Source of the DNA: an uncultured Candidatus Saccharibacteria bacterium
Lineage (GTDB): Bacteria > Patescibacteriota > Minisyncoccia > Phycocordibacterales > UBA1006
DNA length: 64,000 bases
Reading direction: 5' to 3'
Assembly (NCBI GenBank): GCA_964601935.1
Contig: CAZROP010000001.1
Location: 275,661 to 339,660, forward strand
In this document: positions 57,770 through 57,980 of the stretch, piece by piece
How the letters are laid out: each line of letters begins with the position of its first letter
Position numbering within the stretch: position 1 is the first letter of the stretch
The notes under the pieces: model-generated
The model's database searches: none
Told to the model about the DNA's origin: nothing
What the model saw: only the letters and a program-made list of their open reading frames with translations
Translations under genes and position numbers: made by a program

Positions 57770-57980
57770 GCCTACAAGCACTGATGAGGACATCACCTCG
57801 GAGCTCGGGAAAGAACACGTTATGCGTCAGTAGAATCCCGCGGTAGCAGCCGTTATGTGTAAAAAGAGCTTTGGATAATACCGTCCAAAGAAAGTAAGGT
57901 GGTACCACGTATGCCTACGAAAGCATTCGTCCTTATAGATTGTTTTTTGCAATCTATTGTGACGAATGCTTTTGTTTTTA
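57770..57980 (+). promoter_or_regulatory. T-box riboswitch-like leader upstream of ileS
   Basis: AAGGTGGTACCACG at 57896..57909 matches the T-box consensus AGGGTGGNACCGCG. A preceding stem-III-like hairpin ctttgga...tccaaag. A terminator cgaaagcattcgtc...gacgaatgcttt plus a T-run, whose 5-prime arm could pair alternatively with the T-box sequence. Confidence 0.5.

Follow-up and report, generated by a model that had tools for sequence, protein, structure and literature searches.

A candidate T-box riboswitch that combines an ultrashort Stem I with a predicted transcription terminator upstream of ileS in Patescibacteria

In this work, we analysed the untranslated leader of ileS, the gene encoding isoleucyl-tRNA synthetase (IleRS), in a 64,000-nucleotide stretch of the contig CAZROP010000001.1 (hereafter the window, to whose whole length all coordinates refer unless another locus is named), and concluded that positions 57777-57979 are likely to form a tRNA-Ile-responsive T-box riboswitch, which would control ileS by transcription attenuation. 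The textbook example of a tRNA being read by an mRNA is the T-box riboswitch. The leader comprises 305 nt (57732-58036) and extends from the stop codon of a PG_binding gene to the ileS ATG at 58037; a first-pass annotation, which was made from the letters alone, had given it about 300 bp, in agreement with this length, and its features lie at the coordinates listed below. In the list, RF00230 is the T-box family of Rfam, R1 is a covariance model built from nine leaders and MFE stands for minimum free energy.

57738-57766, forward strand: putative leader promoter (TTGCGC, a 17-nt spacer, CATACT), read from the sequence, a weak match
57777-57805, forward strand: ultrashort Stem I, placed by the RF00230 alignment; the MFE fold of 57776-57805 yields the hairpin
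57792-57794, forward strand: specifier codon AUC (Ile) in the apical loop of Stem I, followed by the purine A57795
57806-57840, forward strand: Stem II with an S-turn (GGGAAAGAA ... AGUAGAAUCCC), aligned to RF00230 Stem II including the GAA/AGUA consensus
57841-57860, forward strand: Stem IIA/B pseudoknot, IIA placed by the RF00230 and R1 alignments and IIB by the covariation of relatives
57869-57890, forward strand: Stem III hairpin, MFE of -8.0 kcal/mol, z = -6.2
57895-57935, forward strand: antiterminator; the isolated segment folds as expected, -7.5 kcal/mol
57896-57909, forward strand: T-box sequence AAGGTGGTACCACG (RNA AAGGUGGUACCACG), in agreement with the RF00230 consensus
57917-57979, forward strand: predicted intrinsic terminator, a hairpin at 57917-57975 (15 + 9 pairs) and the tract UUUUGUUUUU (57970-57979)

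The T-box and its structural elements

Among the 4227 Rfam families that were searched, RF00230 was the only one with E <= 0.01 in the window. Its match spans 57772-57937 end to end with 67.7 bits, and the E-value was 1.1e-14 when the leader alone was searched and 1.6e-12 for both strands of the whole 64-kb window. The similarity to RF00230 is far beyond chance. When the curated gathering thresholds were applied to the whole window, no Rfam family was matched, and the T-box emerged only with permissive reporting by E-value. The matches of the terminator hairpin to lactis-plasmid, Ref64, snoRNA and miRNA families (E of 0.4-6) were dismissed as generic hairpin matches.

Stem I, with a total length of 29-30 nt, is made up of the base helix AGC/GCU, a kink-turn (K-turn, GA motif) UGA ... 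GGAG, a helix of 5 bp (UGAGG/CCUCG) and an apical loop of 6 nt (ACAUCA), and its base and GA-motif nucleotides agree with the RF00230 consensus. The specifier AUC in this loop encodes isoleucine, in keeping with ileS as the downstream gene. None of the distal Stem I elements, i.e., the AG bulge and the distal loop that make up the interdigitated double T-loop motif (IDTM) for the tRNA elbow, was found in the window leader. The first-pass annotation had located neither the specifier nor the distal elements, because AUC is placed in the apical loop and the distal elements do not exist here; the folding that it had suggested gave a Stem I of about 30 nt with AUC in the ACAUCA loop. What it had overlooked was that this Stem I belongs to the ultrashort (Class III) type, which has so far been described as translational. 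Downstream of Stem II, IIA pairs CGG (57841-57843) with CCG (57850-57852) and IIB pairs GCA (57846-57848) with UGU (57858-57860). The hairpin that had been described as Stem-III-like, ahead of the T-box, was recovered at 57869-57890, where the RF00230 model also places its Stem III. On the minus strand, a consensus scan called a terminator-like site (57890..57869), which was rejected as Stem III read backwards together with a T-rich stretch, no minus-strand gene ending there.

The near-consensus T-box sequence of the earlier annotation was confirmed at 57896-57909, and its 7-nt bulge, UGGUACC (57900-57906), opens with UGGU, complementary to the tRNA 3' end ACCA, which should enable the antiterminator to pair with a tRNA acceptor end. 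Helix A1 of the antiterminator is formed by 57896-57899 with 57931-57934, and helix A2 by 57907-57909 with 57928-57930 plus four more pairs. The terminator hairpin reached -32.3 kcal/mol (z = -10.5), and none of 200 shuffled sequences was equally stable. The 5' arm of the terminator (57917-57931) overlaps the 3' strand of the antiterminator (57923-57934), and because of this common strand the two structures are mutually exclusive, just as the competition between the terminator and the T-box pairing had been proposed before. Since the antiterminator is worth only -7.5 kcal/mol against -32.3 kcal/mol for the terminator, the latter should be the default state, which makes the leader a default-off switch. 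The consensus scan of the leader did not call the terminator hairpin, because the hairpin has an internal loop.

Conservation and distribution among related leaders

A query with the phosphoglycerate mutase (PGAM)-type insert of the IleRS against metagenomes yielded 80 loci; a first scan of genome contigs with an N-terminal IleRS alignment had picked up universal motifs, mostly from other phyla, and its loci were used as a comparison panel. R1 gave 23 full-length matches (21 of them distinct; 37-136 bits) in the window and in the loci L081-L161, all located before ileS. Altogether, 26 distinct leaders, the window included, were compared, which originated from different samples and records and whose IleRS proteins share about 40-67% identity. 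The AUC triplet was found at the equivalent place in all 26, with A as the next base in 25 and G in L119. In the 21 aligned leaders, the bulge UGGUACC was invariant and every antiterminator pair was kept. The proportion of paired cells in this alignment was 93.7%, compared with 36-51% for slid partners, 11 of the 23 pairs vary on both sides and none of 500 shuffles reached any of five measures, with the caveat that fitting the leaders to the model biases the alignment towards the structure. Nevertheless, the raw sequences themselves display compensatory changes in Stem II, in IIA and at two pairs of Stem I, one with AU/GC and the other with AU/UG. Two-sided changes affected three of the five pairs of the Stem I helix and four of the five pairs of the Stem II base helix, and IIA covaries as well. 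Depending on the leader, the third pair of IIB is U-A, C-G, G-C or A-U, and the base helix of the terminator carries compensatory changes at five positions, e.g., CGCCC/GGGCG in L128 and CCGUCC/GGACGG in L108 and L133. The closest relative, L081, whose IleRS is 67% identical, has the same gene order, an identical T-box core and the AUC codon; its Stem II, Stem III and terminator are kept through changes on two strands, and the helix of its Stem III differs in sequence.

In about 15 of the first 21 leaders, Stem I is 29-31 nt long and its loop comprises 6-7 nt. Five or six of these 21, as well as L165, carry an additional small hairpin in Stem I, still without the distal platform. Moreover, a group of minimal leaders was observed (L098:1772-1880, L148, L149, L125, L133 and L157), which are devoid of the IIA/B pseudoknot, several of them also of Stem III, and retain a Stem I of 30 nt, Stem II, a linker of 15-22 nt and the antiterminator; in L098, the leader ahead of the terminator takes up just 109 nt. 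These minimal leaders are puzzling, because the IIA/B pseudoknot is reported as needed for tRNA binding in Class III T-boxes.

The leader was present in 21 of the 56 metagenomic ileS loci with at least 350 nt of upstream sequence and absent from the remaining 35. Among the named public records from the candidate phyla radiation (CPR), five of six carry it: GCA_035491955.1 (Paceibacterota), GCA_025453495.1 (Pacebacteria), GCA_051006535.1 (Minisyncoccia), Parcubacteria C7867-006 and a metagenome-assembled genome (MAG) of the 'Parcubacteria group'. In the seven closest loci of GTDB species representatives, the leader was not found; these leader-less loci include five named CPR members, a Patescibacteria group MAG, Yanofskybacteria, Spechtbacterales, Paceibacteria and Saccharibacteria. 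Judging from these loci, the element is common yet patchy in the clade. In leader-less loci with the PGAM-type IleRS (L085, L086, L088, L091, L099, L110 and others), a -10-like box (TAAGAT, TAGGAT, TAAAAT and the like) stands about 7-10 nt before the ATG, and the ileS mRNAs of those CPR bacteria may thus be leaderless or nearly so. In L101, the leader (1051-1199) precedes an open reading frame (ORF) of 246 aa (1217..1957), with ileS starting from 2004, and by its position the T-box would control a two-gene unit. A weak R1 match was also obtained far from ileS on a Clostridiales contig (L077:8116-8243; 22.5 bits, E = 0.0014), which may be another T-box before a different gene or a chance match.

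Level of control and alternative explanations

According to the mechanism that we propose, transcription would begin a few bases ahead of Stem I, and the anticodon GAU of tRNA-Ile would pair with the AUC shown in the 6-nt apical loop. The S-turn of Stem II would clamp the codon-anticodon pairing from the side and the IIA/B pseudoknot would serve as a hinge, while the tRNA elbow would not be contacted. The 3' end ACCA of an uncharged tRNA would pair with UGGU of the bulge and steady the weak antiterminator, which would permit readthrough into ileS; with a charged tRNA, or with none, the terminator with its U-tract would form and the transcript would end near 57975-57980. The tRNA binding, the discrimination between charged and uncharged tRNA and the action of the hairpin as a terminator are what we infer from the sequence and its relatives. 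As regards the start of the transcript, the consensus scan called no promoter in the leader; in L081, TTGCGT-16-CATAAT lies at the position equivalent to the putative promoter of the window, and almost all related leaders have a -10-like hexamer at a distance of 7-12 nt ahead of the K-turn. The transcript of the window leader probably starts about 3-5 nt before Stem I, and a promoter-like sequence directly before Stem I leaves no room for a longer stem.

Control at the level of transcription is indicated by the terminators of the relatives, which were assessed by folding. Each of the 26 leaders contains a hairpin with a folding energy between -17 and -33 kcal/mol, its 5' arm being formed by the antiterminator's 3' strand, and immediately behind the hairpin come four or more T in a row. 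Between the U-tract and the ATG there are 57 nt in the window and 1 to 126 nt among the leaders, and in L101, with its intervening ORF, the spacing grows to 764 nt; such a variable distance fits a terminator and not a mask of the start site. Additionally, no motif resembling a Shine-Dalgarno (SD) sequence was found within 25 nt of the ileS ATG in the window, and none precedes the ATG in 22 of 25 CPR leaders, compared with its presence in 11 of 12 comparators from other phyla. Without an SD sequence, control is most likely transcriptional.

Several observations weigh against this interpretation. The leader fails the gathering threshold of RF00230, with 67.7 bits against a cut-off of 93; thus, the search that the first-pass annotation had recommended supports the T-box by E-value and falls short by the curated cut-off. 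In the alignment, 75 model positions of the upper Stem I are replaced by 5 nt, and it is because of these missing positions that the score stays under the cut-off; nine CPR relatives scored 43-66 bits against the same model, and six leaders of other phyla with a long Stem I passed the cut-off with 98-127 bits. The IIB helix of the window is weak, having three pairs only, one of which is G-U. A search of the window and of 60 related loci found no tRNA-Ile gene, and for this reason the anticodon GAU and the discriminator A73 of the ligand are assumed by analogy with bacterial tRNA-Ile in general. In L087, L119, L128, L133, L137, L149 and L162, the U-tract ends 1-6 nt before the ATG. Finally, the window leader lacks the elbow-binding motif that the kinetic argument in PMC7583486 demands; as stated in its section 6.2, transcriptional T-boxes generally need a long Stem I with an IDTM to capture the tRNA fast enough.

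One alternative is that the same T-box acts on translation, or on both levels, the hairpin being a sequestrator of the ribosome landing site and the U-run incidental, which we consider rather unlikely for the window. It draws on the architecture of the aptamer, which is that of Classes III and IV, described as translational, and on the insertions in helix A2, a trait that PMC7583486 ties to translational T-boxes. In the seven leaders with short spacing, moreover, the hairpin would fall inside the ribosome footprint and could also hinder the initiation of translation; after readthrough, the start codon in these seven would adjoin the former arm of the hairpin. However, the hairpin of the window ends well before the ATG, as it does in relatives with up to 126 nt, a sequestrator has no need of the T-run that all 26 leaders possess, and in 22 of the 25 CPR leaders there is nothing SD-like to sequester, unlike in the Actinobacterial comparators (Kitasatospora, Streptomyces), in which GGAGG pairs with the antisequestrator strand and no U-tract is present.

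The loss of most of Stem I and the score under the Rfam cut-off could also be read as signs of a decaying T-box relic, in which Stem I has been deleted, no tRNA is sensed and the hairpin is a constitutive or leaky terminator; the leader is evidently dispensable in the clade, as the 35 metagenomic and seven GTDB loci without it show. This explanation seems very improbable to us, since the short Stem I is itself conserved, with AUC and a following purine in 26 of 26 leaders despite the divergence of their IleRS, the pairing of the Stem I helix, Stem II, IIA and IIB is kept through compensatory changes and the bulge is invariant. Furthermore, the reduced architecture is functional in Actinobacteria, for which structures and binding data have been published.

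The first-pass annotation had itself named a finding that would undo its T-box, i.e., that the hairpin is merely the terminator of the upstream gene. In this case, the hairpin would serve only the PG_binding gene and the T-box-like sequence would be a chance match. Both genes are on the same strand and no other terminator occurs between the stop codon at 57731 and the hairpin, but the T-box E-value for the whole window speaks against chance, and the window and L081 both have the promoter-like TTGCG(C/T)-16/17-CATA(C/A)T in the stretch that separates Stem I from the stop codon of the upstream gene. The leader and the hairpin accompany ileS in 25 other distinct leaders behind differing, unrelated upstream genes, and five of the first 21 leaders (L154, L108, L093, L101 and L096) have their closest upstream ORF on the other strand; the 26 distinct sequences come from various samples and records and are not duplicates of one locus. 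An upstream-gene terminator is hence extremely improbable, and the leader element belongs to ileS.

The locus and comparison with known T-box classes

The genes on either side of the leader were as follows.

56118-57731, forward strand: gene for a PG_binding-domain protein, directly upstream of the leader, its stop codon ending at 57731
58037-61585, forward strand: ileS, a type-2 IleRS of 1182 aa with the Pfam domains tRNA-synt_1, Anticodon_1 and His_Phos_1, its relatives being annotated as isoleucyl-tRNA synthetase

The PGAM-containing IleRS of the earlier annotation was borne out by Pfam: a His_Phos_1 histidine-phosphatase (PGAM-type) domain, encoded in the gene downstream of the leader, is inserted in the catalytic body at residues 534-685 of the protein (about 59636-60091), and it is common to all of the best 120 IleRS relatives. 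The relatives with names among these best 120 are Parcubacteria, Pacebacteria, Paceibacterota or Minisyncoccia, the closest GTDB species representative by IleRS is a 'Patescibacteria group bacterium' with 51% identity, and the relatives of DnaE (20170..23442, minus strand) are Pacebacteria and Nomurabacteria at 54-61%. By its IleRS and DnaE relatives, the window is assigned to the CPR/Patescibacteria, near Parcubacteria/Paceibacteria. In the window (61594-62124), L081, L163, L164 and L167, ileS is directly followed by a RecO-like gene, which in L162 and L165 is found several genes further on, and argS is upstream of the T-box leader in L162, L164 and L165; the ileS/RecO-like/argS surroundings form a conserved neighbourhood across these CPR genomes. 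NlpC/P60 and PG_binding proteins are encoded upstream of ileS. Elsewhere in the window, four large ORFs (28549-31404, 38430-41981, 42072-45227 and 45875-49945; 950-1356 aa) had no Pfam match at E <= 1e-5, and a PilB-type T2SSE ATPase gene (25975-28461) adjoins them.

That a T-box would be notable in this lineage, as the first-pass annotation had remarked, is in line with the placement in Patescibacteria and with our literature search, which, among the papers that could be searched, returned none joining T-box and riboswitch with Patescibacteria, or T-box, tRNA and riboswitch with candidate phyla radiation. The combination of a short Stem I with a terminator was likewise undescribed in the T-box papers that could be searched; earlier leader compilations outside this search may list such leaders. 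In TBDB, RF00230 is used for transcriptional T-boxes and the short-Stem-I model was run in Actinobacteria only. Standard pipelines therefore miss the CPR class, because its leaders score 43-68 bits against the cut-off of 93 and the TBDB search for a short Stem I is confined to Actinobacteria. On balance, we lean towards the view that Patescibacteria carry a sizeable unannotated T-box family that senses tRNA-Ile without elbow contact, using Class III/IV aptamers, and acts by transcription termination, and that this family includes versions of about 110 nt without the IIA/B pseudoknot and Stem III (e.g., L098:1772-1880).

According to the current view, as given in PMC7583486 (section 6.2), a long Stem I that grips the elbow goes with transcription, in which speed matters, and a short Stem I with translation, which has no deadline. 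The mechanism proposed here is familiar, but the combination of aptamer and platform runs against this stated rule of the field. If the family is real, tRNA can be sensed during transcription without the distal platform of Stem I, which goes against the kinetic argument of the current reviews, and the leaders of about 110 nt would be among the smallest natural T-boxes, as far as we know. A family with a short aptamer and a canonical terminator would be a natural counter-example, which makes the kinetic argument directly testable; possible resolutions are that the short aptamer binds fast enough, that the polymerase pauses or that CPR transcription is slow. It would also extend T-box regulation to the CPR, whose minimal genomes have almost no characterised gene regulation, and suggests that the charging of tRNA-Ile is monitored there.

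Four classes of T-boxes are defined in PMC10482949. Class III, exemplified by the ileS leader of Nocardia farcinica, is described there as having a short Stem I without an IDTM, a specifier placed in an apical loop of five or six nucleotides and a dependence on Stem II, and Class IV as having an intermediate Stem I; 10.1101/2023.02.28.530422 calls the ultrashort class 'translational T-box RNAs'. Compared by this published description, the predicted aptamer of the window leader agrees with the definition of Class III. With the Class III ileS T-boxes of Mycobacterium tuberculosis, M. smegmatis and N. farcinica it shares the regulated gene, the short Stem I without an IDTM, AUC in an apical loop of 5-6 nt, the K-turn at the base, the S-turn of Stem II, the IIA/B pseudoknot, Stem III, the T-box bulge and a helix of the antiterminator type. 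The structures 6UFG and 6UFM are of Class III ileS T-boxes, and the ultrashort ileS T-boxes of Actinobacteria are reportedly treated by Sherwood et al. in 2015. Class III differs in that it is described as translational, with an SD sequestrator, whereas the window leader has a long hairpin followed by UUUUGUUUUU and no SD sequence, and in that its descriptions so far are Actinobacterial, whereas the window leader is assigned to Patescibacteria.

With the transcriptional T-boxes of Class I (Bacillus subtilis tyrS and the Bacillota/Chloroflexota ileS leaders L005, L054, L056 and L067), the window leader has in common the competition between terminator and antiterminator, the U-tract, Stem II, IIA/B, Stem III, the T-box sequence and the agreement of the specifier with the regulated gene. 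Class I leaders differ by a long Stem I, which covers about 75 additional model positions and carries the distal motifs AGCGA ... GGUGNGAGC; they score 98-127 bits, whereas the window leader and its nine relatives have no distal elements and score 43-68 bits. A long Stem I with distal motifs was present in all other T-box leaders of our multi-phylum type-2 ileS panel whose upstream sequence sufficed for a judgement, regardless of whether they ended in a sequestrator or a terminator. The R1 matches in Kitasatospora and Streptomyces were rejected as ultrashort leaders, as their upstream sequence contains a long Stem I with distal motifs and they are not Class III. Class IV, known from the Actinomyces odontolyticus ileS leader, is resembled by L087, L096, L132, L141, L149 and L165, in which Stem I carries the additional hairpin, AUC stands at the junction and the IDTM is missing; the specifier of the window leader is in the apical loop, and so this leader is not Class IV. 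The Class IV-like leaders of the CPR, too, end in a predicted terminator with a U-tract.

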